Assembly: GCA_963662545.2 (NCBI GenBank)
Contig: CAXXLL010000003.1
Span: forward strand, 2,176,001 to 2,240,000
DNA length: 64,000 nt
Origin: Gammaproteobacteria bacterium
GTDB taxonomy: Bacteria > Pseudomonadota > Gammaproteobacteria > Ga0077536
Direction of reading: 5' to 3'
Numbering within the stretch: the first letter of the stretch is position 1; each line of letters opens with the position of its first letter. The notes beneath the pieces were generated by a model that saw only the letters and a list, made by a program, of their open reading frames with translations, was not told the DNA's origin and did no database searches. Of the stretch, positions 26,744 through 61,620 are shown one piece after another. Both the position numbers and the translations under genes were made by a program.

Positions 26744-26818
26744 CATCGGGCACATCTCTGTGCCCGCCCGCTTCGCGGCAGTCTGCGCCTGTGCAAATCG
26801 GCTTTCCTGCCGATTTGT
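26744..26818 (+). repeat. 75-nt multi-hairpin micro-insertion (family A)
   Basis: Removal restores the IDIETC codons; ends TTTGT before C. Confidence 0.85.
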
Positions 26819-26830
26819 CAATGTCGATGT

Positions 26831-26877
26831 GGCCTACAGGGATGTAGGTCAGGGGCGTGAGCAGGACGCGGAAGCTT
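26831..26877 (+). repeat. 47-nt micro-insertion (family B, CCTACAGGGATGTAGG hairpin)
   Basis: Removal restores RVFNID; near-identical copy at 37812-37858. Confidence 0.75.
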
Positions 26878-27025
26878 TGAACACGCGTTTCAAGCGGCGT
26901 GCCCACGCCAAGGTCGCGCGCTGTTGGGTGGCTGTTTTATCGGTCTGCAGATCGGGTGATTTTCGACCACGCCGGGCGGGTGTGACGGTGGCGCGGTGGG
27001 CGCTGTTCGGAGCGAACATGCCGTG

Positions 27026-27097
27026 ACAAATTTATCCGGAATAAATTTGGACGACCGAAGGTCGCCCGAAGGGTGAGGAACAGGGATGTTCCTCATC
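27026..27097 (-). repeat. 72-nt multi-hairpin micro-insertion (family A)
   Basis: Inserted at RF|HG; identical copy at 38060-38131. Confidence 0.9.
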
Positions 27098-27156
27098 AAA
27101 GCGAATGAGATTGACGCGGGGTTTGGGAATGAGCGCTGCGAGACGGGCGATGAAGT

Positions 27157-27227
27157 ACTCCGGGCATCCTGCCCTGCGCCCTTCGGGCCAGCCTACGGCT
27201 GTTCAAAATCGCTCCCGGCGATTTTGT
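27157..27227 (+). repeat. 71-nt multi-hairpin micro-insertion (family A)
   Basis: Removal restores PLDFIARL; GGGCATCCTGCCC / CCCTTCGGG / CAGCCTACGGCTG / CAAAATCGCTCCCGGCGATTTTG. Confidence 0.85.
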
Positions 27228-27821
27228 CTAACGGCACGAAGAACATATGCGTCGTGCCATCGCGGTAAGGGGTTTTGAGTTGGTACCGGACGAAGCCGTT
27301 TGCAGTCAGCGAGAGGCGTTGTTCAGAAATGGCGGGGCGGTGATGTAACGGGCAAGGCGTTCGAGCTTTCTGCGCTTCTCCGGTTCGACGGCGACGCCGG
27401 CGTGCAGGGAGAAACCCGCGGCCTTGGCCAGGTGGTCGCTGGTGCGCGTGCTATCGTCGCGAGCCGGTAAGGTCTGCAGCGTGAAGGCTTTGTGACCCTC
27501 GCGGGGCCCGACAGCGATACGGATCATGCCCCGTTCCTGCAAACGTCGGCACAATTCGTAGGGCTCTTGCCAGTTCTGATTTTGAATATGCGAGACGATC
27601 AAGGCGCCATCGAGCGCGACGGCGTTGGCGATTATTTCCCGGTGACCCAGGGTCCAGTTCAACGGCAAGGACTCGGTCGGGCCAAAGCGAGTATGAGCAC
27701 CAAACATGCGATCGTACTTCTTGGCGAGTTTCTGTCGTCATCGTGACCGTGAACGGCGGGAATCTGTTCTATACTCGTTGCGTGTCGGGTTGATGTCTTT
27801 CGAGTACGCAGGAGGAAACGC

Positions 27822-28373
27822 ATGAACATGCCGAAAGTCAGCGTGGCGGATATGGAGCGTTTAGTCGCGCGCTTCAGCGACATGAAGGGCGCGAAGCTCG
27901 CCTATATGGATCAGAGGATCCCGGGCCACGAGCGCGAAATCGTCAATGTCATCGGTCTCGAAACCATGGAAGCCAGCATCATCGAAAACAAACGCGATCC
28001 GTCGACGGCGCCCATGATTCCCGCGCCTGCGCACGGCTTCACGGTTCAGGTCGCGCATGCCGAACACGGCGGCGGCGCGGCCTTGCACAGCCATGAAACC
28101 GAAGAAGTGTTCATGCCCATGGTTGGGCCCTGGTCGATCTTCTGGATGGAGGGTAACGAAGAAAGAGAAGTCATACTCGAGCCTTTCGACGTGATTTCGG
28201 TGCCGACGGTCATCTACCGCGGCTTTCGTTACGTTGGTGAAGGGCGGGGATCATTGCTCGCACTGATCGGCGGGCCGGACGCCGGGATAATCGGGTGGCA
28301 TCCCGACGTTATCGAGAAGGCGCGCGCGACAGGGCTCGCCGTGGACGAGAACGGGGTATTGATCGAAGTGTAG
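27822..28373 (+). CDS. cupin domain protein
   Basis: GAALHSHETEEVF..G.W, LEPFDVISVP..YRGF; AGGAGG RBS. Confidence 0.85.
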   Translation: MNMPKVSVADMERLVARFSDMKGAKLAYMDQRIPGHEREIVNVIGLETMEASIIENKRDPSTAPMIPAPAHGFTVQVAHAEHGGGAALHSHETEEVFMPMVGPWSIFWMEGNEEREVILEPFDVISVPTVIYRGFRYVGEGRGSLLALIGGPDAGIIGWHPDVIEKARATGLAVDENGVLIEV

Positions 28374-28489
28374 ACATTCGCCCGCAAGCGGGATCCTGTG
28401 CGCGCGTACGAACCCTGCGTTTATCCGAAGCGACCGCTGGCGACGCTACTCCACTAAACTCCGATTCGTCGATTCCGGAGGAGAAATCC

Positions 28490-29653
28490 ATGCATCGCAG
28501 CACCGATCGTATTCTGACTTCGCATGTAGGAAGCCTGCCGCGCCCGGACGACGTCCTCCGTCGCATCTACGCCCACCAGGAGCAAGGTGTGCCGTTCGAC
28601 GACGAATACTGGGACATGGTCGCGAAAGCGGTCGACGACGTTGTCGCGCAACAGAAGACAGCCGGGATCGATATTGTCAGCGACGGCGAGATCGGCAAAG
28701 TCGGATTTACCAATTATCTGAGCGACCGGCTCGAAGGTCTGGGCGGCGAGACCGTTATGTGGTCCTTTCACGACCTCGCCGTTGTGCCCGAGGTCGCCGA
28801 GCGCCAGTACAAGAGCGAAGGCGGTAAGCACATCTGTATGCCGGCCTGCGTTGGCGAGCTGGAGTACGTCGGGCAGGAACACGTCGCGCGCGACCTTGCG
28901 AATCTGCGCCGCGCACTCGACGCACACGGTGTCGACGACGCATTCATGCCGGCCGTCTCGCCGGGCTCGGTGACCTTTCAAATCGTCAACCGCCACTACC
29001 CCTCTTATGAGGATTACGTAATGGCGATCGCCGAGGCGATGCGTGAGGAGTACGAAGCGATCGCAGCCGCGGGGTTCACATTGCAGCTTGACGCGACGGA
29101 TATTCCGATCAGCGCACCCGAGCACGGTATATTCTGGGCGAGCGACGTCGTCGAAGAGATGGGTCACCAGAACTTCATCGCGCTCAATCTCGAGGCGATC
29201 AACCACGCGACGGCGTCCATCCCGGGTGAGCAGATGCGCCTGCATCTGTGCTGGGCGAACTACGAGGGACCACATCACTACGACGTGCCGCTCATCGAAG
29301 TGCTTGAGCCCTCCCTCAGGATCTGCCGCGCCAAGACCATCTCATTTGAGGCGGCCAATCCGCGCCACGAGCACGAGTGGACCGTGTTCGAAGACCTGAA
29401 GCTGCCGGACGACGTGGTGATCATGCCGGGTGTCATCGATACGACGACGAATTTCATCGAGCACCCCGAGCTCGTGGCGCAGCGGATCGAGCGATTCGCA
29501 CGCCTGGTCGGACGTGAACGCGTGATCGCCGGGACCGACTGCGGCTTCGGCACCTTCGCGGGATTCGGTGAAGTCGCGCCGGCGGCCGCCTGGCTCAAGC
29601 TCGCGAGCCTCGGTGAAGCGGCGGGGATCGTCTCGCGCCGCTTATGGAGCTGA
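28490..29653 (+). CDS. cobalamin-independent methionine synthase II family (MetE C-terminal/XecA-like) Zn enzyme
   Basis: ILTSHVGSLPRP, GIDIVSDGE, LHLCWANYEGPH, FEAANPRHEHEW, PGVID, AGTDCGF; GGAGGAG RBS. Confidence 0.9.
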   Translation: MHRSTDRILTSHVGSLPRPDDVLRRIYAHQEQGVPFDDEYWDMVAKAVDDVVAQQKTAGIDIVSDGEIGKVGFTNYLSDRLEGLGGETVMWSFHDLAVVPEVAERQYKSEGGKHICMPACVGELEYVGQEHVARDLANLRRALDAHGVDDAFMPAVSPGSVTFQIVNRHYPSYEDYVMAIAEAMREEYEAIAAAGFTLQLDATDIPISAPEHGIFWASDVVEEMGHQNFIALNLEAINHATASIPGEQMRLHLCWANYEGPHHYDVPLIEVLEPSLRICRAKTISFEAANPRHEHEWTVFEDLKLPDDVVIMPGVIDTTTNFIEHPELVAQRIERFARLVGRERVIAGTDCGFGTFAGFGEVAPAAAWLKLASLGEAAGIVSRRLWS

Positions 29654-29739
29654 ACAGCGATGATTCGTCGGGTGTCCCCGACTTTCCCACGGACGTTCCC
29701 CGGCGCGGCAGCGCTCGTCTCCGCGTATAACCCGCAACA

Positions 29740-30200
29740 CTACAGGTAGGACAGATTGACTTGTTCGGCCGGCACGGGGACTTCGTCCAGACCGAGTTCG
29801 CGGCGCACGATGTTCGTGCCGCGAACCAGTGAGACCATTTTGTAGAACGCGTGCTTGCGGCTGATCCCCTGGCGACCGAAGCCGCGGTCGCTGCTCAGGA
29901 TCAAGTGGGCGGGGTCCATGAGCTTGAGCGCCCTGCGGATGTCATCGGCGACCTCTTCCGGCGTCTCGACCTGAAGGCTGCGGTGTGAGATGAGGCCTAT
30001 CGCTATCTTCTTGTCCTTGCCGATGACCGCCGCCACTTCGTTGAGCTCGAGATAGCCGGCGTACTTCATTTCGAACGTGATTACGTCGACGTCGAGTTGG
30101 TCGAGATATTGCAGCACGGGTTTGTATTTCGCCCGGTAGCCCAGGTTCTGTGCATACGGGTTGCCCCAGCAGGTGTGGCACCACACTTCGGTCTTGTCGC
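29740..30200 (-). pseudogene. C-terminal fragment of a second MetE-like protein
   Basis: EVWCHTCWGNP, DVITFE, IGLISHRSLQVETPEEVA, SSDRGFGR; N-terminal two-thirds missing. Confidence 0.8.
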
Positions 30201-30305
30201 GCAGGCGTGCGTCATCGACCGCGCCGACGGGGCCGCCAAATAAACTGTATGCAACGATAGCGACCGCGACGGTTGGCGGTAGGCGTATAACAACGGCCCC
30301 CATAT

Positions 30306-31538
30306 TCACGCGAGTTCGTTTTTGTAGAAGACTCCGTCTTTCATAATCGCCGCAAGATTCTCTTCGGGTCGGGTCAAGACCGAAAGATCGGTCAGCGGAT
30401 CGGCTTCGAGAACGAGGATATCGGCCCGCGCGCCCGCGGCGATTTCACCGATGTCCCCGTCGGCCTGCAGGAGCTCTGCGTTGATCGCGGTGGCGGACTT
30501 CAGCACCTCGTGGTTCGATTGCATCTCACCACGCAGTAGCAATTCCTCGGCCTGGCGTTCCTGCGCTTCGCTGCCGAGCAGATCGGTTCCAAACCCCATC
30601 GGAATGCCTTTTTGCGCGCACAATTCCACGGCGCTGTAACCGGCCTCCATCACGTACTTGAGCTTGTCTATTTGCGCTGCCGTCAGCCCGAATCGCTCGC
30701 GGTAGCGCTCCATCGTGTCGTAGGTGATCAAGGTCGGTACGACGAAACAATCGTTTTGGGCCACGAGATCCGCGGTCGCGCTATCGAGCAGGTTGCAGTG
30801 CTCCAGCGACCGCACGCCACAGTTCACGGCGTGCGCGATAGCCTCCGGTGAATAGACGTGGGCCATCACGTATTTCCCCCAACGTGCAGCCTCCTCGGTG
30901 ATCGCCGATAGTTCTTCGGGCGAGAACTGCACGCTGTCGATGGGATCGTTGACCGAGGTCACACCGCCCGACGCCATGACCTTGACTTGCGACGCGCCCC
31001 TGCGGATCTCGTCGCGTACGCCTTGCAATACTTCGGGTACGCCGTCCAGCGTTCGAAACGCGTATTCTAGCGCAGATCCGCAGCCGCACAGCGGCGCCTC
31101 CTCCACCCGAAAGCGTTGATCGCCGTGACCACCGGTCGGACTCAAGGCGTGGCCGGAGGGGTAGATGCGCGGCCCGACGATCACGCCAGTGTCGACGGCG
31201 TCCGCTAAACCGCGGTCGGCACCCGCCGCGTCGCGGATGGTCGTGAAACCGCGGGCCAGCATGTTTTCGAGACTCCTCACGGCTTCGGCGAACATGCGAG
31301 ACGGCTGCATCGCACGCAAGGCTGTGAGGTTGTAATCCGGCAGGCAGACGTGAGCATGCGCGTCGATCAGACCGGGGATGACGGCGCGGCCGCCGAGGTC
31401 AAACCGTTCGGCATCGGAAAGTTGCGGTCGCACGTCGGTGACTTCCTTGATCCGTGCGCCTTCGACGACGATGTGATGGTCTTCCCGCAGCGTGGGACGC
31501 GCGGCATCGAACACGCGACAATTTTCGAGGACGATCAT
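30306..31538 (-). CDS. metal-dependent amidohydrolase (Xaa-Pro dipeptidase/prolidase-like subgroup)
   Basis: PGLIDAHAH, GFTTIRDAAG, TGGHGD, VKVMASGGV, AHVY, LEHCN, FGTDL. Confidence 0.9.
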   Translation of the reverse strand: MIVLENCRVFDAARPTLREDHHIVVEGARIKEVTDVRPQLSDAERFDLGGRAVIPGLIDAHAHVCLPDYNLTALRAMQPSRMFAEAVRSLENMLARGFTTIRDAAGADRGLADAVDTGVIVGPRIYPSGHALSPTGGHGDQRFRVEEAPLCGCGSALEYAFRTLDGVPEVLQGVRDEIRRGASQVKVMASGGVTSVNDPIDSVQFSPEELSAITEEAARWGKYVMAHVYSPEAIAHAVNCGVRSLEHCNLLDSATADLVAQNDCFVVPTLITYDTMERYRERFGLTAAQIDKLKYVMEAGYSAVELCAQKGIPMGFGTDLLGSEAQERQAEELLLRGEMQSNHEVLKSATAINAELLQADGDIGEIAAGARADILVLEADPLTDLSVLTRPEENLAAIMKDGVFYKNELA

Positions 31539-31545
31539 TGCTGCC

Positions 31546-32973
31546 TCAAAGCGACGGCCGATAATCGCGCCAGGGTGCAGCGTTCTCGTACGCACTGGCC
31601 ATGCGAAAAACGGTCATGTCGTCATACGTCCGCCCGACGATCTGGATGCCGGTCGGAACACCCGTCTCCTTACAAACGCCGGCCGGGACGGCCATCACCG
31701 GACAGGTACTCACCATGTTGAATGGCCAGGTCAAAAGCCAGTTCAAATACGCCGGGACTTTTTTTCCGTTGATTGCGAAATCGGGATCGGCATTGTCGTG
31801 ATCCGCCTTCACCGCGGGGATCGCTAACGTCGGACAGATCAACACGTCGTAGGATTTCAGGATCGGCGCCAGCTTCTGAAACATCTCCCCGCGTACCAGG
31901 TTGACCTTGTAATGATCGGTCGCCGTGCGCGTCAGACCGCGTTCGATCATGCCGACGAAGAAAGGATCCATATCGTAGTGCCAGCGCCTTAAGACATCGC
32001 CACCGAGAAAGGCGGCTGCCATTGCTTCCCAGTGTTGAAGGTAAGGATCGAGGATCCCTGCATGCCAGCCGAGATCGACATCTTCGACCGTACAACCGAG
32101 CCCCCGAAAGACCTCCAGCGCCGCACGCGTGTTGGCCTGGATCGTCGGATCGATTTCGAAAAAGCCCAGGTCCATTGAAAAGGCGATCTTCATGCCGTCG
32201 ATGGGTTCATGGGTCTCCGGCAGACGAACGCGCGTTTTCAAGGACATCATGTCGGCGGGATGCGGGCCCGACATGACGTTCTGCATCAATGCTGCATCGG
32301 CGACGCTATGTGTCATGGGGCCGTAGTGCAGCAGGGTTTCCAAGGGATGATCCAGATCCAAGGGGTTGCGCCCGAAAGGCGGTTTGTACCCGACGATATT
32401 GCAGGGTGCAGCGGGGATTCGCACCGAACCACCCGCGTCGGTGCCGTCGGCGATCGTGGTCATGCCGGCGGCGAGTGCGGCGCTCGCGCCGCCCGAGGAA
32501 CCGCCCGAAGTATAATCGAGGTTATAGGGGTTGCGCGTAATGCCCCAAAGGGGACTGCGCGTTGCGCCCGAATGTGCGAATTCGGGAGTGGTGCTACGGC
32601 AATGCATGATCGCGCCCGCACGCAGTAAACGTTCGATCGTCGGCGCAGTCGCATCCGGGCGAAAATCTGCATTCATCTTGGAGCCGGACGTCGTGATCTC
32701 GCCCTTGACCGGGTGAAAATCCTTGATCGCGCAGGGAATACCGTCGAGCCGGCGCGGCCGGCCGTTGGGATCCATGTAACGCTCTTCGGCTTTTTTCGCT
32801 TGTTCGAGCGCGCGCTCGTAATGCGTGTAGGTGAAGGCGTTGATTTTCGCATTGACGGCCTCGATACGATCGAACATGGCCTGCATCAACTCGATCGGAG
32901 ACAATGCCTTCGCTTTAAACGCTGCGATCGCTTCCGTCGCGGACATGTAGCAAAGATCGGTATTCTCGGTCAT
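31546..32973 (-). CDS. amidase (amidase-signature family)
   Basis: IKD (Lys), SGGSSGGASAA, GTDAGGSVRIPA: catalytic triad intact. Confidence 0.93.
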   Translation of the reverse strand: MTENTDLCYMSATEAIAAFKAKALSPIELMQAMFDRIEAVNAKINAFTYTHYERALEQAKKAEERYMDPNGRPRRLDGIPCAIKDFHPVKGEITTSGSKMNADFRPDATAPTIERLLRAGAIMHCRSTTPEFAHSGATRSPLWGITRNPYNLDYTSGGSSGGASAALAAGMTTIADGTDAGGSVRIPAAPCNIVGYKPPFGRNPLDLDHPLETLLHYGPMTHSVADAALMQNVMSGPHPADMMSLKTRVRLPETHEPIDGMKIAFSMDLGFFEIDPTIQANTRAALEVFRGLGCTVEDVDLGWHAGILDPYLQHWEAMAAAFLGGDVLRRWHYDMDPFFVGMIERGLTRTATDHYKVNLVRGEMFQKLAPILKSYDVLICPTLAIPAVKADHDNADPDFAINGKKVPAYLNWLLTWPFNMVSTCPVMAVPAGVCKETGVPTGIQIVGRTYDDMTVFRMASAYENAAPWRDYRPSL

Positions 32974-33216
32974 CGCGGGCTCCTCCTTCGTATTGTCATC
33001 CCGTATTCTTTCAAGTATTCGCCGTCAGATCATTAAATTCCCCCTGATCAGGTACTATCGCGATCAGGCCCGGATGATAAAAATACTCGAAGCATCGTGA
33101 TCAGCCCGGAAGCCATCGAACTCAACCCATCATTCCGCAACGACATCAAAGAATCGGGACTGTTCACCGTCTCAGTCGATGACGTGCGCACCAACTGAGA
33201 TGAGTTCGGTATATCG

Positions 33217-33405
33217 GTGCCGGAATATTCGCCCCATGTTGCTATCGAAGCGGTGGACTACAGTGGCGTCGCCGGCGAATGGATTTTAGCGACCTTGCTG
33301 GCGGCACGCGACAACGATGTGCCCCTGCCCGCAGCCGCGGTGGCGATCTCGCCGTGGGTCGACCTCCCGAACGTCGGCGACTCGCATGAATTCAATGCCG
33401 AATCT
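33217..33405 (+). pseudogene. internally deleted alpha/beta-hydrolase (HSL-like) fragment
   Basis: VDYSGVAGEWI joined directly to LATLLAARD..PLPAAAVAISPWVDL; catalytic GDSAG region absent. Confidence 0.6.
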
Positions 33406-33518
33406 GGCCGATATTCGCCTCCCAGTTACCGGAGAGACGCAGCGCCATCACGAGAATATCGGCGTTCTTCGGCGCGCACCTTGCTTAGGCCGCGCTGCTG
33501 TGCCCGGCGTGAACTCCG

Positions 33519-33566
33519 AAAAGGGAATAGGGGACGCAGGGGATAAATCCCTCCGTCCCTTTTTTT
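33519..33566. terminator. probable intrinsic terminator
   Basis: GGGACG-CAGGGG-ATAAAT-CCCT-CCGTCCC stem followed by T7; just past the stop of the minus-strand cupin gene. Confidence 0.55.
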
Positions 33567-33585
33567 GTGGGGATCAAAAGTTCCG

Positions 33586-34032
33586 CTAGGCGGCGGCCTT
33601 CGACTTCTCCACGGTGAAATTTTGCGCCTTGCCCGCGAGCATCTCGAGCGCGGTTTCGTGGTTCAAGATCTGTTTCACCGAGCCGTCTTCGTTGAAGTAG
33701 ATACTTGGACCATAAGCGTTGAAGGTCAGTATCGTTTCTTCTGAGCAGGTAGTAGTCTCGTGTACCGCGCCTGTGGGCTCATACGCGTAACACCCGGCCG
33801 CGGCTTCGCCCATGCGGTACTCGAGTTTACCCTTCAGTACGAAGAAGTCGGCGGGAGCCAGGTGCTTGTGCGACGCAAAGACGCAGCCGGGCTCCATGCG
33901 GATGAGTGCGCTCCAAAAACCCGTCTCTTCGCTGACACGCAGTACCTTGATCCCGACGCCGTCACCCATTTTCACCCAGGGTATATCGTCGGTTTGGACC
34001 AGGATTTCACTGTCTTGGGCGGTGGTCGTCAT
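33586..34032 (-). CDS. 2,4'-dihydroxyacetophenone dioxygenase family / ChrR-like cupin
   Basis: DDIPWV, KVLRVSEETG, SHKHLA..FVLKG..EY, YEPTGAVH; GGAG RBS. Confidence 0.8.
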   Translation of the reverse strand: MTTTAQDSEILVQTDDIPWVKMGDGVGIKVLRVSEETGFWSALIRMEPGCVFASHKHLAPADFFVLKGKLEYRMGEAAAGCYAYEPTGAVHETTTCSEETILTFNAYGPSIYFNEDGSVKQILNHETALEMLAGKAQNFTVEKSKAAA

Positions 34033-34289
34033 CGCGTGTTCTCCAACGATGCGTGGAGGGTAATGGTACTGCCGATCCGCCTGAGGCACCAGAGGTCATG
34101 TGCCCACAAGCGGGCTGCTGCATGCGATGCGTGGTATTCGGTATCGGAGCCCGCTTGCTGGACATAAACCGTTCTTCTCATTCGCTCGCGTCAGATAACG
34201 CAGCATCGACGCTGTGCTTTACCTGTAGAATGAGGTGCAAGGGATGGCCCTGCGCCGCCGTTCGGACGGTGCCGTACGACAGGAGTGGA

Positions 34290-35219
34290 ATGCCCATGAC
34301 CGCCACGGACTATCCAAGAGATCTGATCGGTTACGGCCCCAATCCACCGAACCCAAACTGGCCGAACGACGCGCGGCTCGCGCTCGAGTTCGTGCTCGCG
34401 TACGAAACCGGGGCAGAGACCAACATCCTCCACGGTGACTCGAGTTCCGAAAACGTACTCACGGATATTGCGGGCTTCCCCGCGATCCCGGGTGCCCGAA
34501 GTGTGCTCGTCGAATCGACTTTTGAATACGGGCCCCGGGTCGGGTTCTGGCGCATCATGAGAATGTTCGAAGAGCGTGGGATCAAAGCGAGCATATTCGC
34601 CGTAGCGATGGCGCTGGCCCGCAATCCCGTGGCGGCCAAGGCGATCCTTGACGCGGGCCATGAAGTCGTCTGCCACGGCTACCGTTGGATCGATTATCAA
34701 CACGTCGACGAGAGTGTGGAACGCGAACACATCCGTCTCGGCGTCGAGACCCTGACTGAGCTCATCGGCGAGCGCCCACTCGGTTGGATGACCGGCCGCC
34801 CCAGCCCGAACACGCGGCGCCTCCTGGTCGAAGAGGGCGGGTTTCTCTATGACCAGGATTCGCTGAACGATGAGTTGCCCTATTGGGTGACGATCAACGG
34901 CAAGCCACATCTGTGTCTGCCGTATTCCTACGAGTCGAACGACAATGCGTTTTCGGGCAGGCAAGGGATGTCAACGGGTGAAGAGTTCTATGTTTATCTC
35001 AAAGATGCGTTCGATTTTTTCAGGAAGGAAGGCCAGCATTCGCCCCGGATGATGACCGTAGGGATCCACGATCGCCTAACCGGACGCCCCGGTCGTGCGG
35101 CGGGCCTGGGGCGATTCCTGGATCATGTCATGGCGACTAAGGACGTGTGGATCTGCCGCGGTATCGACATCGCCCGGCATTGGATCGAACACCATCCGTA
35201 TCCCGGAACGCGCTCGTAA
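34290..35219 (+). CDS. puuE: allantoinase PuuE-like polysaccharide-deacetylase family protein
   Basis: DYPRDLIGYG..PPNPNWP..ARLA..FVLAYE, ES.FEYG.RVGFWR, CHGYRWIDYQ, GWMTGRPSPNTRRL, DELPYW, DIARHW; substrate not certain. Confidence 0.8.
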   Translation: MPMTATDYPRDLIGYGPNPPNPNWPNDARLALEFVLAYETGAETNILHGDSSSENVLTDIAGFPAIPGARSVLVESTFEYGPRVGFWRIMRMFEERGIKASIFAVAMALARNPVAAKAILDAGHEVVCHGYRWIDYQHVDESVEREHIRLGVETLTELIGERPLGWMTGRPSPNTRRLLVEEGGFLYDQDSLNDELPYWVTINGKPHLCLPYSYESNDNAFSGRQGMSTGEEFYVYLKDAFDFFRKEGQHSPRMMTVGIHDRLTGRPGRAAGLGRFLDHVMATKDVWICRGIDIARHWIEHHPYPGTRS

Positions 35220-35231
35220 CTGGGAGGCTGT

Positions 35232-35884: not shown

Positions 35885-35937
35885 GCACGTGAAATCGGGG
35901 ACAGTCTGAAAGACGGTCCTCGTTATTCGGACCTGGC

Positions 35938-37192: not shown

Positions 37193-37649
37193 GGTCGATT
37201 CCTCCTGCTTCAGCACCACTGATGCCGGAATAAACGCGTTTAAATCATCCCAAGTATAAGGCGGATAACCGCCCTATTTCGAGCTTTCGGAGTTGACGCG
37301 TTTTGGTCGCGGGTCTGGATTTCGTGGTTTCGTGGCGGTCGTGGACGGGGTTGCGCGGGGCCGGTGTGTCGATGGCCTGGGTCAAGTGCGTCTAGCGGGG
37401 TGTGGTCACGAGCGGGCCCGTGACCGTCGCCGATGAGGGCTGTGATCTTGCTTGAGATCGGGGATGGCATCGAGCCTCAGTCGTTGAGGCCCGGCAGCGC
37501 TGCTTGTGGGGGTGCTCGGGCGGAAGGAATGCCGGACCACGTCGGCTGTGCAGCGCGCTGGTCAAGATGCTCGAGGATGCGTTGGATGACGGCGGGGTCT
37601 TCGATGCAGGCGATGATCTTAACGTTGCCGCCGCAGGCATCACAGGTTT

Positions 37650-37799
37650 CATCGGGCACCTCCCTGTGCCCGCCCGCTTCGCGGCAATCTGCGACTGTGC
37701 ACCAGTTTGCCGGGAGCAAACTGGAACAGCTTTAGCTGGCCTGCGCAGCAGGTAGGCTACATGGATGTAGCCTATAAATCGGTTTTCCTGCCGATTTGT
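37650..37799 (+). repeat. family A micro-insertion with a second, inverted family A copy nested inside (37701-37775)
   Basis: 150 nt = 75 + 75; the outer copy differs from 26744-26818 at 5 positions. Confidence 0.85.
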
Positions 37800-38059
37800 C
37801 GATGTCGATGTGGCCTACAGGGATGTAGGTCGGGGGCGTGAGCAGGACGCGGGAGCTTTGAATACGTGCTTCAAGCGCCTGGCTTAAGGCTCGCCGCTCT
37901 TGCGCATCCCTGCGCCCGCGGCATTAGTGCATCCCTGCACGTCATGGCGGCGCGGCACTGGCCAGGGGTTTTCTCGGTGTCGGGGCCGGGTGTTTTGCGG
38001 CCGCGGCGGGCGGGGGTGACCGCCGCGCGGTGTGGACTGTTCGGTGCGAACACGCCGTG

Positions 38060-38131
38060 ACAAATTTATCCGGAATAAATTTGGACGACCGAAGGTCGCC
38101 CGAAGGGTGAGGAACAGGGATGTTCCTCATC
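38060..38131 (-). repeat. 72-nt family A micro-insertion
   Basis: Identical to 27026-27097, same RF|HG site. Confidence 0.9.
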
Positions 38132-38186
38132 AAAGCGGATGAGATTGACACGGGGTTTGGGAATGAGTGCGGCGAGGAGGGCCATG

Positions 38187-38262
38187 ACTAATCGGCAGGA
38201 CTGCCGATTTGCACGACCGAAGGTCGCCCTGTCCGGGGTGGGGTACACGGACGTACCCCATG
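38187..38262 (-). repeat. 76-nt family A micro-insertion
   Basis: Removal restores EPLDFMAL. Confidence 0.8.
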
Positions 38263-38465
38263 AAATCGAGCGGTTCGAAGAACACGTGGGTGGTGCCGTC
38301 CAGGTCAAGGGGTTTTGAGCGCGTATCGCACCAAGCCCTGTGAGATGAGTGACAGGCGCTGCTCGGAGAGCGCGGGTCGGGTGATGGTGCGGCATAGTCG
38401 TTCGAGTTTCTTTCGTTCCCAGGGCTCGGTGCCGACGCCGGCGGCTACAAATCCCCTGAATAGCT

Positions 38466-50049: not shown

Positions 50050-50051
50050 CA

Positions 50052-53224: not shown

Positions 53225-53329
53225 CCCAATTTAGTCTGAAAATCAACGAGAAAGGCCTGTGGCAGAAAGTCATGCAATTGTCTTTAGCAGCTTGGACAGA
53301 CCTTCTTGGGCACCGTAGTATCCACCGCC

Positions 53330-53704: not shown

Positions 53705-53705
53705 G

Positions 53706-54080
53706 ATGCGCAAATCCATCCTCACGATCGCACTTGTGGTGATCGCTCAAACGGCCGGTTCGGACGACCAGCCGGACCCCGAATTTGCACGCTCGCCGGG
53801 CGACATGACGGTCGAGGAACGCATGCAGATGATCCAGAAGGCGCGAGGATACGACGCCTGCGTTTACACCGAGGCCCTGGCGCAGGGCGACGATGAAGGC
53901 GACATTCGGCGCGTTGCGGACATGGCGATGGGTCAGTGCGAACCGCACCTGGAGGACCTGCGTACGATGATCGAGGGATGGGGATTCAAGCCGCACTTCG
54001 CGCGCGGCTTTATGAGCAACGTTCGAAATCGCGCGGCTCGCAAGATTCTGCCGGAACTGGCCGTGCGCAAAGGCCGTTAA
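53706..54080 (+). CDS. hypothetical exported protein
   Basis: MRKSILTIALVVIAQTAG signal peptide; Y..C..A...C pattern. Confidence 0.7.
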   Translation: MRKSILTIALVVIAQTAGSDDQPDPEFARSPGDMTVEERMQMIQKARGYDACVYTEALAQGDDEGDIRRVADMAMGQCEPHLEDLRTMIEGWGFKPHFARGFMSNVRNRAARKILPELAVRKGR

Positions 54081-54096
54081 CCACTATCATTTGGCG

Positions 54097-54618
54097 CTAG
54101 CCGGGTCTGGAATGATCGGCCCCGTTCACTGGCATTTCGCCGGTCAATTCACTGACGAAATCCGCCAGTTCATTGAGTGCTCGCTGGTAGACGTTTCTTT
54201 TGAACGGCACGACGAAACCGAGCGGATCCCAATAATCGAACCAACGCCAGGCATCGAATTCCGGCTGTTCGGCAACATCAAGCCTAAAATTGTGTTCGGC
54301 GCTCACCAGCTTCAACAAGAACCAAATCTGCTTTTGACCAATGCACACTGGCCGCTGGTGGTAGCGGATATAGCGCTTGGGTAGGCGGTAACGCAGCCAG
54401 CCCTTTGTTGAACCCAGGACACCGACGTGCTCCGGTTCGAGACCTACCTCTTCCTTCAACTCGCGGTACATCGCCCGCTCGGGCGTTTCATGGTGTTTAA
54501 TGCCGCCCTGCGGAAACTGCCAGGCCGCCATGCCGGCCCGGCGGCCGCAGAACACCTGGCCGTTGTCATTCAACAAAATGATGCCGACATTCGCACGAAA
54601 GCCTTGTTCGTCGATCAC
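54097..54618 (-). CDS. rppH: RNA pyrophosphohydrolase
   Basis: [54 protein letters not shown]. Confidence 0.96.
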
Positions 54619-54622
54619 TGTT

Positions 54623-55603
54623 TCAATCCAAAATTTTCTGAATGGCGGCACGCTCTTCGGCTAATTCTGCGGCCGATGCGTCCATGCGCGCACGACTGAA
54701 ATCGTTGATCGGTATATCGGACACGACCTTATACGACCCGCCCTCACACGTAACTGGAAACGAATACATGAGACCTGCTTCGATGCCATAGCTGCCATCG
54801 CTCGGGATCGCCATGCTGACCGAATCACCGGCCGGCGTACCCAGCACCCAGTCGTGCAAGTGTTCGAGTGCGGCGTTGGCCGCAGACGCGGCGCTGGACG
54901 CGCCGCGCGCCTCGATAATCTCTGCGCCGCGTTTGGCGACGCGCGGAATATATTCGTTTTCGTACCAGGCGCGGGAGACCAGGTCGAGCGCCGCCCTGCC
55001 AGCGACGGTTGCGCGGCTCAAGTCGGGGTACTGGGTCGTCGAATGGTTGCCCCAGATCGCAAGGTTTTTTATCTCATCGACCGGGGTCCCGGTTTTACCG
55101 GCCAGTTGTGCCATCGCGCGGTTGTGGTCGAGCCGGGTCATGGCCGTGAATTGTGCGGGATCGATATCCGGAGCGCAGGTCATGCAAGTCCAGGCGTTGG
55201 TGTTGGCCGGATTGCCGACCACCACCACCTTGATATCCCGTGCGGCATTTTCGTTGATCGCCTTGCCCTGCACCTTGAAGATCCCGCCGTTGGCTTCCAG
55301 CAAATCGCTGCGCTCCATACCCGGGCCGCGCGGCCGCGCGCCAACCAGCAGACCGTAGTTGGCGTCCTTGAAAGCTGCGTTGGCGTCATCGGTCGTCTCG
55401 ATTCCAGCGATCAGTGGGAACGCGCAGTCGTCGATCTCCATCACTACGCCTTCGAGCGCTTTCATCGCCGGCGCGATCTCGAGCAGTTGCAGGATTACCG
55501 GTTGATCTGCGCCCAGTACTTCGCCGGCCGCAATGCGAAACAATAAAGAATAGGCTATCTGGCCGGCGGCGCCGGTGACGGTCATTCTCACGGGTGGCTT
55601 CAT
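54623..55603 (-). CDS. mdh: malate dehydrogenase (MDH1/Thermus-type)
   Basis: [60 protein letters not shown]. Confidence 0.97.
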
Positions 55604-55644
55604 TTGAATCTGCCCCTCTATTGAAACGCCGTAATAAAGAGGCG

Positions 55645-56943
55645 CTAAGTGCGCTTCTCGATCGGGACGTAGTCGCGCTGCTTGGCGCCGATATAAAGCT
55701 GGCGTGGCCGGCCGATGCGGAAATCGGGGTCCGCCATCAACTCATTCCACTGCGCGATCCAACCCGCGCACCGCGCCAGGGCGAACATACAGGTGTACAT
55801 GCTGGGCGGAATATTGAGCGCCTGGTAAATGAGGCCCGAGTAAAAATCCACGTTCGGATAAAGTTTGCGCTCGATGAAGTAGTCGTCTTCCAGTGCAATG
55901 CGTTCGAGTTCCATGGCAATTTCGAACAACGGCTGGTTAACGTGCATTTCGTCAAGCAGATCGTGGCAGGCTTTGTAGATGATCTTGGCGCGAGGATCGT
56001 AATTCTTGTAGACGCGGTGTCCAAAGCCCATCAGCCGAAACGGGTCGTCCTTGTCTTTCGCGCGGTCGATGAACTTCTTGATATTTTTTACATCGCCAAT
56101 CTCTTGGAGCATGTGGATGACCGCTTCGTTCGCGCCGCCGTGGGACTTGCCCCACAAGGTCGCAATACCCGCAGCGATGCAGGCAAAAGGATTGCTCTCC
56201 GCGCTGCCGGCGAGTCGCACTGTCGAGGTGCTCGCGTTCTGTTCGTGATCTGCGTGCAGGATCATGAGCAGTTCGAGCGCGCGTACCGCGACCGGATTGG
56301 CCTCGTAGGGCTCGGTCGGCCAGGAGTACATCATGTACATGAAATTTTCGACGTAATCGCGCGAATTGTTCGGGTACACGAACGGCAGGCCGGACGCGTA
56401 GCGGTAGATCTTGGAAACCAGGCCCGGCATCTTGCCGATGACGCGCCGCGCGGTGATCAGCCGATCTTCTTCCTTATAGATATCCGTATTGTCGTGGTAG
56501 TAGGAGGCAACGGCGCCAACCACGCCGGTCAAGACGGACATGGGATGGGCGTCGTAGCGGTAGCCCGAGTAGAAACGCGACAGGTGCTCGTGGGTCATGC
56601 CGTGCATTTTGAGAGCATGGACCCATTCGGCGAGTTCGTCGGAATTCGGCAGTTCGCCGTGCACGAGCAGGTAGCAAACTTCGACAAAAGACGAATGCTC
56701 GGCGAGCTGCTCGATAGGATAACCGCGATGAAGCAGCACCCCCTGCTCGCCGTCGAGGTAGGTAATGGCGCTGCGGCAACTCGCCGTTGCACCGAAACCA
56801 ACATCCAGCGTGAACATGCCGAGCTCCTTGTACAAGGCCTTGAGATCGATAACCGGCGCCCCGTATTCACCCTCGTGCACCGGGCATTCCACGCTCTTCC
56901 CTGTCGCATTATCCGTTATGGTAACGGTACGTTGTCCGCTCAC
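55645..56943 (-). CDS. gltA: citrate synthase (type II)
   Basis: [63 protein letters not shown]. Confidence 0.98.
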
Positions 56944-57281
56944 TTGGATTCCCCCAATCGTTGTGCCCCGCGCCGCCGGTTTACTGAGTGCTTGCGGCCG
57001 GCCGGGACTGTCTAGAATAACGTTCCGCTCGTTTGATCAGCAAGATAACGTGGCGAGGCGGCATCCCAGCAGTGTGTGGGATCGACACTTTAAGTCGTGA
57101 CGAACGTGGTTTAGCGGTGCTAAATGCGCGATGGGTAACGCCGAAACGTGGTTGATTCCGAGATAGCTTCTAATGACTTTCGACAGGGATTGATCAAAGA
57201 TTCTCGTTCTTTTCGCCGATACACCGTGGTATTGGCAGGGTTTCGGGCCATCCGGTGACGATTTCCTCATTTTGCAGGTGA

Positions 57282-60125
57282 TTGAAGATGCAGTCTCCAT
57301 CATGCTTGTTCAGTGGCAACGCGCCGTTTATTGAAGATCTTTATGAGTCCTACCTGCTCGATCCCGATGAGGTATCTCAAGACTGGCGCAAGTATTTCGA
57401 TAGCTTGCAGGACGGCCGCAGCGCGCCAGCAAGCGATGTACGTCACTCCGAAGTTCAGGCGCGCATGCTGGAAATCGCGGCATCCCCGAAGCCGATTACC
57501 GTCGCGGTCTCGGCCGGAAGTGGAGCTGACTCAAAGAAGCAGGTTTCCGTTTTACAGTTGATCAATGCTTACCGGTTCCGCGGACACCGCCAGGCGAACC
57601 TGGATCCGCTCAACCAGTATGCGCGACCGGTTGTCGCGGAGCTGGATCCTGCGTTTCACGGCCTGTCAGAGACTGATATGGACAAGGTCTTCAACACCGG
57701 CTCATTACAAGGGCCGGATCAGGCAAGCTTGCGCGAGATTCTCGAGATCGTGCGTACCACCTACTGCGGCACTATCGGCGCGGAGTACATGCACATCGTG
57801 GAAACGAGTCAAAAGCGCTGGGTGCAACAGCGCCTCGAGTCCCGGCAGGCGAAACCCGACTTCAGCGCCGAGAAACGCAAGGATTTGCTGAGCCGCGTGA
57901 TCGCCGCTACGGCGCTGGAAGAATATCTGCATACCAAGTACGTCGGACAGAAACGATTCTCGCTCGAGGGGAGCGAGAGTACGATCGCCCTGCTCGATCA
58001 AATCGTCGATGACGCTGCACGTCACGGCGTCAAGGAGCTAGTTCTCGGCATGGCCCATCGCGGCCGTCTCAACGTCCTGGTCAACATCGTTGGCAAGCAC
58101 CCTTCGCTACTGTTCGACGAATTCGAGGGCAAGGGCCCGACCGAACTCCGTGCGGGAGACGTCAAGTATCACATGGGCTTTTCGTCGGATATCGAAACAC
58201 CCGCCGGAGCCGTTCACCTCACCTTGGGTTTCAATCCGTCACACTTGGAAATCATCGGCCCGGTAGTCGAAGGTTCGGTGCGAGCACGCCAGGATCGACG
58301 CGCGGACGTCGACCGCAACCAGGTCATGCCCCTGCTGATCCATGGGGACGCTGCGTTCGCCGGTCAAGGTGTCGTGATGGAAACCCTAAACCTGTCGCAA
58401 ACGCGTGGCTACTCGACCGGCGGTACCATGCACATCATCATCAATAATCAGATCGGATTTACGACCAGCGACCCGCTCGATTCCCGCTCGACGCTCTACT
58501 GCACCGACGTCGCGAAAATGGTCCAGGCGCCTATCTTCCACGTCAATGGCGACGATCCGGAAGCCGTTGCCATGGTCGCGCAGATGGCGCTCGACTATCG
58601 GATGGAATTCAACAAGGACGTCGTCGTCGACATGATCTGCTTCCGCAAGCACGGCCACAGCGAGGCCGATGAACCCGCCGCGACGCAGCCGATCATGTAT
58701 CAGCACATTCGCAATCACCCGGGCGTGCGCCACATCTATACCGAGAAGCTGGTTTCCGAAGGCGTTATCAATCCCGGTGAGGCAGAGGAGATGGCGGCCA
58801 AGTATATCGATGCCCTCGAGAACAATTACGTAGTGTCACGGCCACATACCAACGTCATCGACAGCCGTCACACGATCAACTTCGAACCCTATCGAGACAC
58901 GCACTGGGACGTGGAAGCTAGCACCGCGCTCGACGCCGAGCGTTTCCGATCCCTGTCGGAAAGCTTTAGCACGGTGCCCGATGACATGGTGCTGCACCGC
59001 GCACTAAAGCGAATACTCGGGGATCGCAAGGCGATGGGCGCGGGCGAGAAGGCCTGCGACTGGGGCTTTGCAGAGACGCTGGCCTACGCGTCGCTACTCA
59101 CGGAAAACTTCCCGGTCAGAATTTCCGGGCAGGATAGCGGCCGCGGCACTTTTTTTCATCGCCACGCCGTAATCCACGACCAGAAGTCTGGCGACACCTA
59201 CCTCCCGCTACAAAATCTGAGTCCCGACCAGGCGAGCTTTCTGGTCATCAACTCGACCTTGTCGGAAGAGGCCGTCCTCGCCTACGAGTTCGGTTACGCC
59301 AGCGCCGATCCGAAATCGCTGGTGATCTGGGAAGCGCAGTTCGGTGACTTCGCCAACGGTGCGCAGGTCGTCATCGATCAATTCATCGCGTCCTGCGAAG
59401 AGAAGTGGGGGCGTTTCTGTGGCCTGGTCATGCTGCTGCCCCACGGCTACGACGGCCAGGGACCTGAACATTCATCCGCCCGTCTCGAACGCTACCTGCA
59501 GCTTTGCGCGGAAGAGAACATGCAGGTGTGCTATCCGACGACACCGTCGCAAATGTTTCATATGCTGCGGCGACAAATGATCCGGCCCTACCGCAAACCC
59601 CTGATCGTGATGAGCCCCAAGAGTCTCTTGCGGCACAAACTTTCGGTCTCACCGCTGGAAGAATTCATCGACGGGGGATTCCGCACGGTGATCGATGAAA
59701 TCGATTCGATCGACAAGGACAAGGTTCACCGCATTCTCGTTTGCAGCGGCAAAGTATATTTCGATCTGCTCGAAGCCCGGCGCGAACACGATGTGACGGA
59801 CTGCGCGATCTTGAGGCTCGAACAGCTTTACCCGTTTCCGAAAAGTGAAATTCAAAACCTGCTAAAGGCTTATCCTAATGCCGAGGAACTGGTGTGGGTA
59901 CAAGAAGAACCCCGCAACCAGGGCGCCTGGTCCATGCTGCTTTCGACACGGTTCCTGGGTGGGTGTTTCGATCAGACCAAGCCCTTGCTTTGCGTCGCTC
60001 GACCCTATTCGGCTTCACCAGCAGTCGGATATGCCTCGCTTCACCTCCAGCAGCAACAGCGGGTGATCCATGACGCCCTGGATTTGTCGCGGTTCGAACA
60101 AGCCAGGGAGAAGAAATCCGCTTGA
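57282..60125 (+). CDS. sucA: 2-oxoglutarate dehydrogenase E1 (start TTG 57282 or ATG 57288)
   Basis: GQKRFSLEG, GMAHRGRLNVL, GDVKYH, HGDAAFAGQGVV, WEAQFGDFANGAQ, GPEHSSAR. Confidence 0.98.
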   Translation: MKMQSPSCLFSGNAPFIEDLYESYLLDPDEVSQDWRKYFDSLQDGRSAPASDVRHSEVQARMLEIAASPKPITVAVSAGSGADSKKQVSVLQLINAYRFRGHRQANLDPLNQYARPVVAELDPAFHGLSETDMDKVFNTGSLQGPDQASLREILEIVRTTYCGTIGAEYMHIVETSQKRWVQQRLESRQAKPDFSAEKRKDLLSRVIAATALEEYLHTKYVGQKRFSLEGSESTIALLDQIVDDAARHGVKELVLGMAHRGRLNVLVNIVGKHPSLLFDEFEGKGPTELRAGDVKYHMGFSSDIETPAGAVHLTLGFNPSHLEIIGPVVEGSVRARQDRRADVDRNQVMPLLIHGDAAFAGQGVVMETLNLSQTRGYSTGGTMHIIINNQIGFTTSDPLDSRSTLYCTDVAKMVQAPIFHVNGDDPEAVAMVAQMALDYRMEFNKDVVVDMICFRKHGHSEADEPAATQPIMYQHIRNHPGVRHIYTEKLVSEGVINPGEAEEMAAKYIDALENNYVVSRPHTNVIDSRHTINFEPYRDTHWDVEASTALDAERFRSLSESFSTVPDDMVLHRALKRILGDRKAMGAGEKACDWGFAETLAYASLLTENFPVRISGQDSGRGTFFHRHAVIHDQKSGDTYLPLQNLSPDQASFLVINSTLSEEAVLAYEFGYASADPKSLVIWEAQFGDFANGAQVVIDQFIASCEEKWGRFCGLVMLLPHGYDGQGPEHSSARLERYLQLCAEENMQVCYPTTPSQMFHMLRRQMIRPYRKPLIVMSPKSLLRHKLSVSPLEEFIDGGFRTVIDEIDSIDKDKVHRILVCSGKVYFDLLEARREHDVTDCAILRLEQLYPFPKSEIQNLLKAYPNAEELVWVQEEPRNQGAWSMLLSTRFLGGCFDQTKPLLCVARPYSASPAVGYASLHLQQQQRVIHDALDLSRFEQAREKKSA

Positions 60126-60151
60126 TAAGAAACTAAACAGGGGTAAATACC

Positions 60152-61375
60152 GTGTTAATCGAAGTGAAGGTACCTGTACTCGCCGAGTCCGTACCAGACG
60201 CCACCTTGCTGGACTGGTTCAAGCAGGTCGGTGAGCGTGTGGAGCGCGGCGATAACCTGATCGATCTCGAAACCGACAAGGTAACTCTGGAGATCGCTGC
60301 GCCGGAATCGGGCGTCATCAAAGAACTCCGCAAGCAAACCGGCGATATCGTGCTGGAAGACGAAGTGCTCGCAGTGATCGACACCGAGGGCACAGCCTCG
60401 GCGAATGCGGATGCCCTGGTGGCGGCAGCGGTAGCGCCGGCATCGCAGGTGGCGGCGCCTGCTACCCAGTCCGTCGAGAAACTCGGCCCGGCAGTGCGCA
60501 AGCTGATCGAGGAGCATGGCCTCGATGCGAGCCGTATCGAAGCGACCGGCAAGGGCGGCCGCCTGCTGAAGGCCGACGTCTTGGCCTATCTCGAAAAGGG
60601 GAGCGAAGCTGCGAAGGCGGATGTCATCAAAGCCACGCCGCATGTGCAGGAACGCCCCACAGCGATCGACACGAGCCGTGTCGAGGAGCGCGTACCGATG
60701 ACGCGTTTGCGCAAACGCACGGCCGAGAGGCTGCTTTCCGCACAACACGAAAGTGCGCTGCTGACTACCTTCAACGAAGTCAACATGCACCCCGTGATGG
60801 ATCTTCGCAACCGCTTCAAGGTGGAATTCGAGGAGCGCTTCGGCGTGCGCCTCGGATTTATGTCTTTCTTCGTGAAAGCGGCTGTCGAGGCATTGAAGAA
60901 ATTTCCGATCGTGAACGCCTCCGTTGACGGCGACGACATCTTGTATCGCGGCTATTTCGACATCGGCGTGGCCGTGGGTTCGAAGCGCGGTCTGGTCGTT
61001 CCCATTCTCCGCGAAGTCGACCGCATGACATTTGCCGAGGTCGAACGCAAGATCCGCGATTTCGGCGAGCGGGCGCGGGATGGCAAGCTGACGATCGACG
61101 AGTTGACGGGCGGTACTTTTACCATCAGCAACGGCGGCGTCTACGGCTCTCTGATATCGACCCCGATCATCAATCCGCCGCAGAGCGCGATACTCGGCAT
61201 GCACAAGATTCAGCCACGCCCGGTTGCGGAAAATGATGAAGTCGTGATCCGGCCGATGATGTATCTCGCCGTCTCCTACGATCACCGCATCATCGATGGA
61301 CGCGAAGCGGTGCAGTTCCTCGATACGATTCGCCGCACGCTCGAAGATCCGGCACGGATGCTACTGGAAATATAG
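60152..61375 (+). CDS. sucB: dihydrolipoyl succinyltransferase E2
   Basis: Lipoyl ETDKV, E3-binding domain, [18 protein letters not shown]. Confidence 0.98.
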
Positions 61376-61387
61376 GACGCCTCATCA

Positions 61388-61620
61388 AGTGCGCTGTCCC
61401 GCAATAAAACTTCATAATTCGCTGGTCCTCGCACCGCGCTGCGGCGTTACTCGTCGTTGCCGTATTGCGGATGCCGTCCATGGCATCCACCCTTCGGGCC
61501 CGCCTTCGGCGGTCCAAATACGTTCCCGACGAATTTGTCCCGATACGACGCCTCCTCGCGCCTTGCATCGCGGCACGAGTCCTGCGCGACTTATCGAAGT
61601 TTATTACGGGACAGCACACT
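61388..61620. mobile_element. MITE-like long hairpin element with a nested family A insertion (61467-61538)
   Basis: Terminal IRs AGTG(C/T)GCTGTCCCG(C/T)AATAAA; internal dyad symmetry; ends 6 nt upstream of the lpdA ATG. Confidence 0.8.

Follow-up and report, generated by a model that had tools for sequence, protein, structure and literature searches.

The window analysed here is a 64,000-nucleotide (nt) stretch of a gammaproteobacterial genome of the GTDB group Ga0077536 (assembly GCA_963662545.2, contig CAXXLL010000003.1, positions 2,176,001 to 2,240,000). It contains eight copies of a short, structured element built as a row of hairpins, which are the subject of this report together with the larger family they belong to. 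A sequence-only reading of the window had listed eight such copies. All are present where it placed them, and R1, a covariance model built from seven window copies, finds them again in a genome-wide search, the interrupted copy being recovered as its 5' part (37650 to 37725). R1 E-values for the window matches range from 1e-16 to 8e-6. The copies, their hosts and one related hairpin are as follows, in window coordinates:

26571 to 27737, minus strand: host 1, C-terminal remnant of an IS91/ISCR-like Y2 transposase gene with three elements inside
26744 to 26818, plus strand: four-hairpin element (R1 69.5 bits; fold z -4.4)
26833 to 26848, minus strand: lone hairpin with the hairpin 1 loop motif (CCTACAGGGATGTAGG on the plus strand)
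27026 to 27097, minus strand: four-hairpin element of 72 nt (R1 87.1 bits; 24-codon gap against an intact 516-aa paralogue)
27156 to 27227, plus strand: four-hairpin element of the TACTCCGGGC type (R1 78.1 bits; site empty in five paralogues)
37480 to 38454, minus strand: host 2, paralogous IS91-like remnant with four elements inside
37650 to 37799, plus strand: composite of a 26744-type element interrupted by a nested element (R1 partial match, 37650 to 37725)
37701 to 37775, minus strand: nested four-hairpin element (R1 69.2 bits; fold z -5.3)
38060 to 38131, minus strand: four-hairpin element identical to 27026 to 27097 (R1 87.1 bits)
38187 to 38262, minus strand: four-hairpin element of another subtype (R1 77.9 bits; alignment of filled and empty paralogues)
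61388 to 61620, no strand: host 3, palindromic repeat with 20-nt arms (61388 to 61407 and 61601 to 61620), complementary with 2 mismatches
61466 to 61538, plus strand: four-hairpin element of the TGCGGATGCC type (R1 81.3 bits)

Host 1 was assigned from weak Pfam Y2_Tnp matches, tblastn alignment to an intact paralogue, and blastn matches of 70 to 73% to plasmid genes of the IS91 family. A 901-nt host stretch matched only IS91/ISCR genes in a plasmid collection, at ~70%, and one 72-nt copy of the element had no match there. Within host 1, copy 26744 to 26818 lies antisense, directly ahead of the ETC..CGG zinc-finger codons, and the alignment of the host to the intact paralogue is interrupted at 26744 and 26879. 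Copy 27026 to 27097 is sense to the host and splits the F and H codons of the motif ..NLIRF|HG.., while 27156 to 27227 is again antisense; 38060 to 38131 occupies the same host codon as 27026 to 27097 in the second remnant. Copy 38187 to 38262 lies 3 nt from the position that corresponds to the 27156 to 27227 site of the paralogue, in the opposite direction and belonging to a different subtype. The composite is interrupted within hairpin 4, on the 5' arm, by a copy that is the sole representative of its subtype in the genome (R1 match, 37701 to 37776), and its uninterrupted counterpart is copy 26744 to 26818. The eighth copy, at 61466 to 61538, forms the centre of the palindromic repeat, upstream of a dihydrolipoyl-dehydrogenase-like frame, and a second copy with the same flanks is found at C3:2354162 of this genome. 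The lone hairpin at 26833 to 26848 is part of a further 17-codon insertion in host 1 and has a paralogous twin at 37814 to 37829 in host 2; these two hairpins may be truncated elements or a separate mini-insertion.

The elements are, or were, mobile DNA that encodes nothing. Five paralogues are uninterrupted at the sites filled by 27156 to 27227 and 38187 to 38262, and an intact 516-aa IS91-like paralogue (..NLTRF|HGVFAPN..) lacks exactly the 24 codons, one of them a stop, that are inserted at 27026 and 38060 in the window copies. Removal of the elements restores the host codons, as the sequence-only reading had it. Paralogue contigs from public sequencing runs likewise close across 38060 to 38133 (38059 joined to 38134, with 2 other letters) and across 37636 to 37798. 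A comparable case outside this genome is a Y1 transposase gene whose GRF|WEGRF site is filled in five foreign loci of Alteromonadales-type records, with record names Pseudoalteromonas (two), Paraglaciecola, Shewanella and Endozoicomonas, and in which the codons are again restored on removal. In the two loci of a single Pseudoalteromonas contig (L037 and L040) both flanks of the Y1 gene are otherwise open, and in L051 and L063 the flanks carry stops. Judged by length and taxon, the split gene resembles subclass 2.3 in the scheme of Quentin et al. 2018 (PMC6006769).

Insertion is precise, falls between a T and a C or G, and leaves no target duplication. At each junction that was checked the only ambiguity is a single T, since the flank and the element both end in T, and no duplication was found at the four sites with empty counterparts. 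We assembled a junction set of 135 copies, comprising 34 of the ~60 from this genome and those of 80 foreign loci, which was reduced to 129 when identical flanks were removed. On the 5' side, 96 of the 129 copies are preceded by T and 53 by TT; on the 3' side the next base is C in 84 copies, G in 42, A in 2 and T in 1, giving C or G in 126. There is no fixed 4-mer at the target, positions +2 to +4 being flat, and inside the element the first base is variable and the second is A in 113. The window copies conform closely to this rule, with T before all eight and C after seven, in agreement with what had been read from them at the outset. The IS91-type target GTTC/CTTG was considered as a general target and is ruled out by the flat positions +2 to +4; T|GAAC occurs in 5 of the 129 copies. 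Copies also nest inside one another and form head-to-tail arrays of two or three units, and such stacking is expected if an element's own 3' junction (..GT|S) serves again as a target.

Members of the superfamily are ~60 to 105 nt long, most of them 66 to 90 nt, and consist of a row of four hairpins, or of three in one subtype. They start with N-A-Y-K and finish with TTTGT; the two ends are dissimilar, and there are no terminal inverted repeats. Hairpin 1 begins 2 to 5 nt inside the 5' end and has CATCCNTG as its loop. Next come hairpin 2, of the form CCC-TNC-GGG, and then hairpin 3, and hairpin 4, which is opened by GTYCAAA and has the loop TCCNG, stops 1 nt before the 3' end. The 66-nt subtype has three hairpins and ends in TTTTT. 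The claim of a shared multi-hairpin architecture is borne out by folding, as six copies gave three or four hairpins each with z-scores of -2.6 to -5.3 against shuffled sequences. That the stems covary also proved correct: compensatory changes occur in 17 of 26 pairs among the seven window copies and, in a wider set of 100 distinct copies from the 80 foreign loci aligned by fitting to R1, both sides change in 22 of 26 pairs. In this wider set 88.5% of cells are paired against 67.2% in shuffles, none of 500 shuffles reached the observed values, and the covariation score is 0.52 against 0.06 to 0.08 with slid partners.

Two features of the stems bear on the molecule that folds. Leaving out the pair that closes the loop of hairpin 4, G-T accounts for 36 of 2,178 standard pairs. 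Of 156 triloops, 109 have the form C-TNC-G in the modeled strand, which reads C-GNA-G in its complement. C-GNA-G is a hyperstable DNA mini-hairpin motif. The rarity of G-T pairs and the type of triloop are two hints of a DNA fold rather than an RNA fold. The sequence-only reading had called the copies nonautonomous single-stranded DNA elements, of which the noncoding and mobile character stands and the single-stranded state is hinted at by these two counts.

The family has about 60 copies in this genome, in several subtypes. R1 matched 63 places at E up to 1 among the best 150 of 1,010 candidates scored, and an independent nhmmer search found 60. In the 80 foreign loci R1 has 104 matches. Matches occur in 24 of 41 relatives and, with an E cut-off of 1e-4, in 73 of 151 genomes chosen as one per family of the class, this genome being included in both counts. 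At most the best 32 candidates per genome were scored in the latter survey, and its copy counts are lower bounds; 17 of the 73 positive genomes have nine or more matches (high-copy genomes), and two unpublished genomes, G063 and G164, are counted in both the 73 and the 17. Scanning one genome per species with a strict motif yielded at least 118 stretches. Among the matches listed in that scan, ~69 of 80 records bear gammaproteobacterial names, and the others include Zetaproteobacteria, Deltaproteobacteria and one Filomicrobium. A Kluyvera-type copy is present in 11 of 5,426 Escherichia coli genomes, where it is unannotated and lies in acquired regions.

Two targets recur across genomes, the T-loop of spare tRNA gene copies, entered in either direction, and a duplicated 3' end of the 5S rRNA gene. 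Partial tRNA copies are split exactly in the T-loop, sense as GGTT|CGAA and antisense as GGTTCG|AATCC, and both splits read TT|CGAA in the element's own direction. A tRNA gene adjoins the cluster in four of eight loci drawn from high-copy genomes, and tandem units, each with a tRNA 3' end, occur with periods of 139, 175 and ~215 nt, the 175-nt tandem having 4.9 copies with 99% matches. In this genome two units of ~205 nt behind tRNA-Pro follow the same T-loop plan, and a split tRNA-Arg copy stands beside a live tRNA-Arg gene. Seventeen of the 104 foreign matches, in 13 of the 80 loci, fall within 500 nt of a tRNA gene; as listed, 14 of these 17 follow the tRNA gene on its downstream side and 13 run antisense to it. 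The corresponding figure for this genome is 6 of 60, against ~1% expected from 50 tRNA genes in 5.58 Mb. As for the 5S target, the E. coli rrnB operon has a 5S 3'-end fragment split by a copy scoring 69 bits, and no copy lies near the single 5S gene of this genome, the only one that was found. In locus L149 (G120:C2:58500-62000), positions 1500 to 1740, behind tRNA-Arg, hold terminator-like hairpins and several antisense pieces of the 3' ends of other tRNAs in addition to the elements, which looks like a pile-up of gene-end fragments.

Further recurrent targets in this genome are remnants of HUH transposase genes and the centres of palindromic repeats. One subtype has ten copies at the same codon of IS91-like paralogues. 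The 66-nt subtype is central in a palindromic repeat of ~300 bp, as one or two tandem units, at 13 of its 14 loci (C3:821140-821450 and 12 more places; ends CTAGCAGCCTGTCGGACTTAGG), and a three-unit array of the subtype is found outside this repeat at C2:1819550-1819748. Residence in other mobile elements, which had been proposed as a habit of the family, is mainly a trait of this genome, where it does describe the copies; family-wide the clearest hot spots are the tRNA T-loops and the 5S 3' end. The related statement that no copy lies in an intact gene is true of the window and fails elsewhere, as the 72-nt copy at C3:2047523-2047594 is in frame and stop-free within a 369-aa open Y2 transposase frame, and some insertions may be translated, as this one could be.

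Named relatives of the window elements occur in E. coli K-12, where R1 has three matches (69.4 bits, E 1.3e-12), directly behind rrfA, rrfB and rrfF. The rrnB copy is antisense between terminators T1 and T2, inside a duplicated 5S 3'-end fragment (GAGTAGG|..|AACTGCCAGGCAT), and this spacer has the same four hairpins and end motifs as the window elements, with T before it and C after it. It differs in status, being known as terminator-region sequence and not as a repeat or mobile element; RefSeq has no annotation there, and in the open-access literature we found no paper that treats it as either. The 178-bp repeats of E. coli tyrT are built likewise. They comprise four RtT units (rttR, RF00391) scoring 133 to 138 bits with the RtT model, each a tRNA-Tyr fragment with its T-loop (GGTTCG|..|AATCC) interrupted by an antisense insert of ~68 nt that has a TACTC start, a CCCTTCGGG hairpin and a third hairpin, and the tRNA-Pro-linked units of this genome share their plan. 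The tyrT insert differs from the window elements in being degenerate, lacking the CATCCNTG loop and having another fourth hairpin, and R1 gives it only 6 to 11 bits; conversely, the best RtT match to a window copy (13.6 bits, E 10) is below the family threshold of 45 bits. The literature, a preprint included, regards RtT as a processed RNA of unclear role.

A third relative is the Rfam family RF02902 (AaHKsRNA22, Aggregatibacter small RNA 22), whose consensus is the antisense of a TACTC-type element. Its layout of an ACAAAAC hairpin, GAAC, two short hairpins, GA, a hairpin and GAGTA is the same architecture read from the other strand. Copies that adjoin tRNA genes in this genome score 33.2, 31.0 and 21.8 bits with the RF02902 model, the first two being the tRNA-Pro-linked copies, against a threshold of 39.8 bits, and the model had no match at E up to 10 on the three window copies in 26700 to 27300. 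AaHKsRNA22 was reported as an RNA-seq candidate only, and the word "repeat" is absent from the main text of PMC5909427. At family thresholds Rfam has no match over the whole window, with weak matches at loose thresholds alone. The sequence-only reading could not match the elements to a named family, and that statement has to be amended, RF02902, RtT and the rrnB T1-T2 spacer being relatives. Searches of open-access text, which does not cover older subscription papers, returned no description of the elements, the rrn copies, the tyrT repeats and RF02902 as one repeat family, and the family is apparently unnamed.

We favor the view that these sequences form an old and very widespread superfamily of noncoding insertion elements that move as folded single-stranded DNA and are cut and rejoined in trans, and we give this a little less than an even chance (about 0.45). 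The nuclease would be an HUH-type or similar single-strand enzyme acting in trans, and the elements would insert into DNA that is single-stranded for a short time, at replication forks or in heavily transcribed stable-RNA genes. The active strand would probably be the complement of the modeled strand. The C-GNA-G triloops, the rarity of G-T pairs and the fact that copies behind tRNA and rRNA genes are mostly antisense together suggest that the complementary strand is active and enters the sense strand exposed at forks or during transcription.

Several results weigh against this view, most of them from the search for the mover. No arrangement of hairpin 1, gene and hairpin 4 was found in this genome, in which there is one orphan 5' half only; an autonomous partner with the same ends and a TnpA was likewise not found in this genome, which was the one searched for it, and IS200-type tnpA is represented by two fragments only. 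The sequence-only reading had named a Y1 or RAYT-like (REP-associated tyrosine transposase) enzyme, which these tests do not support. All five full Y1 genes of this genome carry their own, unrelated flanking repeats, and the one R1 match in 15,205 bases around them belongs to an IS91-like remnant that is 1.9 kb away from a Y1 gene with inverted repeats of its own. Around the Y1 genes of five high-copy genomes, three of which share a related Y1 with a DnaA-C-like tail, there is no R1 match (E up to 0.1) in 38,701 bases. Co-occurrence of the elements with Y1 or Y2 families, tallied from listings over the 151 genomes, is weak. Any Y1 gene is carried by 90 genomes (48 of the 73 R1-positive against 42 of the 78 R1-negative, and 14 of the 17 high-copy genomes), a Y1 of the G075 type by 32, of which 18 are R1-positive against 73 of 151 overall (6 of the 17 high-copy genomes), a subclass-2.3-like Y1 by 16 (9 R1-positive) and a Y2 by 28 (17 R1-positive), the comparison for these two being again 73 of 151.

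Other objections come from the targets and from the ends. The proposed preference for hairpin targets was not upheld, as predicted hairpin loops are not enriched at target sites in a crude test (37 of 121 against 149 of 484 controls). The tRNA- and 5S-linked units carry a copy of the gene's 3' end, as integrase-type or homing cassettes do. The two ends of IS200/IS605 elements match each other, unlike hairpins 1 and 4 here. Contigs of four sequencing runs contain no empty allele of the window loci, a result that, resting on contigs only, is uninformative either way. On balance the sequence-only reading is partly supported: it was right in kind, the elements being nonautonomous, structured and probably single-stranded DNA, while its enzyme is unproven and its range of targets was too narrow.

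A bolder form of the favored view, which we hold tentatively and with less confidence, is that these are class-wide single-stranded DNA micro-transposons with a mover outside the known Y1 and Y2 partnerships, homing to T|C/G and especially to tRNA T-loops and 5S 3' ends, where an intact gene with split pieces of gene ends behind it would result. One family would then have left as fossils the rrnB T1-T2 spacer, the tyrT/RtT repeats and at least one catalogued small RNA.

The alternative that survives best, though we consider it unlikely, is that the mobile unit is a gene-end replacement cassette of 140 to 215 nt, with three parts: the element, a spacer and a duplicate of the target gene's 3' end. 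A tyrosine integrase or homing-type nuclease would insert it such that the stable-RNA gene is restored and the old 3' end is pushed downstream, bare elements being decayed cassettes or secondary events. Tandem units of 175, 139 and ~215 nt that each contain a tRNA 3' end are what such a cassette would leave, and the same plan recurs behind tRNA-Pro here, at E. coli tyrT and at rrnB. Set against this, 87 of the 104 foreign copies are away from tRNA genes, and the empty-site comparisons in the IS91-like and Y1 genes show insertions of only 71 to 76 nt. Frames of at least 80 aa clustered over the 80 loci gave no recurrent transposase, integrase or nuclease gene beside the elements, and brought out the Y1 gene that is itself a target. 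The 1-nt junction ambiguity is also less than the sequence identity that recombinase cores need.

Distinctly improbable, in our view, is an origin at the level of RNA, in which the fold would belong to an RNA (a small RNA, a module for the processing or stability of stable-RNA transcripts, or a template for reverse transcription) and the DNA copies would have spread by way of it. The antisense relatives are indeed catalogued RNAs, with the RtT model scoring 133 to 138 bits on the tyrT units and RF02902 scoring 33.2 and 31.0 bits behind tRNA-Pro against its threshold of 39.8, and contigs from an RNA library cover 26725 to 26942 and 27046 to 27353. No RNA-library contig closes across an element (contigs only), the G-U pairs that an RNA fold would tolerate are very rare, and no Rfam family reaches threshold in the window. 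The elements stand in both orientations relative to host genes and tRNA genes, and many copies lie in dead genes with no evident promoter. A preprint reports higher mobilome coverage of the tyrT-rttR region under stress, which is in keeping with an RNA-level route. Least probable is that the elements are passengers, immobile now and perhaps seldom mobile, whose copy number reflects the multiplication of their hosts (IS91-like genes, palindromic repeats and tandem tRNA genes): ten copies at one codon, 13 of 14 loci of the 66-nt subtype in one repeat, several copies with common flanks and the lack of polymorphism at the window loci in the contigs of four runs speak for it, against which stand the filled and empty paralogues, two subtypes 3 nt apart in opposite directions in two paralogues, the nested singleton copy, 129 distinct flank contexts and presence in 73 of 151 families.

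If the favored view is true, a common origin would account for the 178-bp repeats of tyrT with their RtT RNA, for the second 5S end that lies in rrnB between T1 and T2, and for some of the candidate small RNAs. It would add a widespread, structurally defined class to the small repeats of bacteria, and its clear insertion rule makes the mover directly searchable. With the covariance model, annotators can flag disrupted transposase genes, interrupted tRNA copies and spurious small RNAs. The rrnB terminator cassette is common in expression vectors, and a copy rides in it, which is relevant to vector design if the element is a target for recombination or nicking.

We note three further observations from this genome. 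Contigs of two sequencing runs skip 71, 79 or 139 nt at 29381 to 29528 of the window, inside the long frame 28295 to 29653, and since the sides are short (20 to 32 nt) the cause may be other organisms or repeats. An insertion sequence of 1,387 bp is present in ~20 near-identical copies. The GC skew is consistent with one chromosome split into contigs C2 and C3, with a minimum near C3:1.73 Mb and a maximum near C2:1.88 Mb.

Among known mobile repeats, the elements resemble REPs (repetitive extragenic palindromes) and REPINs in being short, structured, noncoding and clustered, and REP copies inside tnpA-REP genes are reported in section 12 of Quentin et al. 2018 (PMC6006769). A REP consists of one hairpin of 20 to 40 nt with a GT[AG]G head, and REPs flank a RAYT gene of their own, whereas the window elements are mostly 66 to 90 nt long with three or four hairpins, a 5' N-A-Y-K, no GTAG head and no Y1 link. 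The true REP of this genome (GTAGGAGC...) is a different repeat. A RAYT-like Y1 gene of 163 aa at C3:129419-129907 is flanked by classical REPs (GTAGGAGCCCGCTTGCGGGCGAATC, at 95 places with up to 3 mismatches), and the four other Y1 genes resemble the TIRYT type in that each has inverted repeats of its own.

With IS200/IS605 and the PATEs (palindrome-associated transposable elements) the elements share asymmetric ends that each have a hairpin close to the terminus, insertion 3' of a T-rich site, and the absence of both inverted terminal repeats and target duplication. They differ in that the target appears to be a single T rather than a fixed 4- or 5-mer, that two extra internal hairpins are present, and that the end hairpins, 1 and 4, are unlike each other. 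Miniature inverted-repeat elements of DDE transposons are defined by terminal inverted repeats and target-site duplication, neither of which is found here. An integron attC site is one long imperfect hairpin in which R''-L'' pairs with L'-R' and which ends in GTTRRRY, whereas the elements by eye form four separate hairpins, with 5' and 3' ends that do not pair with each other. The ends of the IS91 type were considered as an origin and rejected, as those of the 1,874-bp IS91-like element of this genome are unlike the micro-element. Finally, elements that tyrosine integrases insert in tRNA genes leave a duplicated tRNA 3' end, and here too a partial tRNA or 5S 3' end stands downstream of an intact gene, but the units described here are 140 to 215 nt long and gene-free, and the duplicated segment is itself split by the element.

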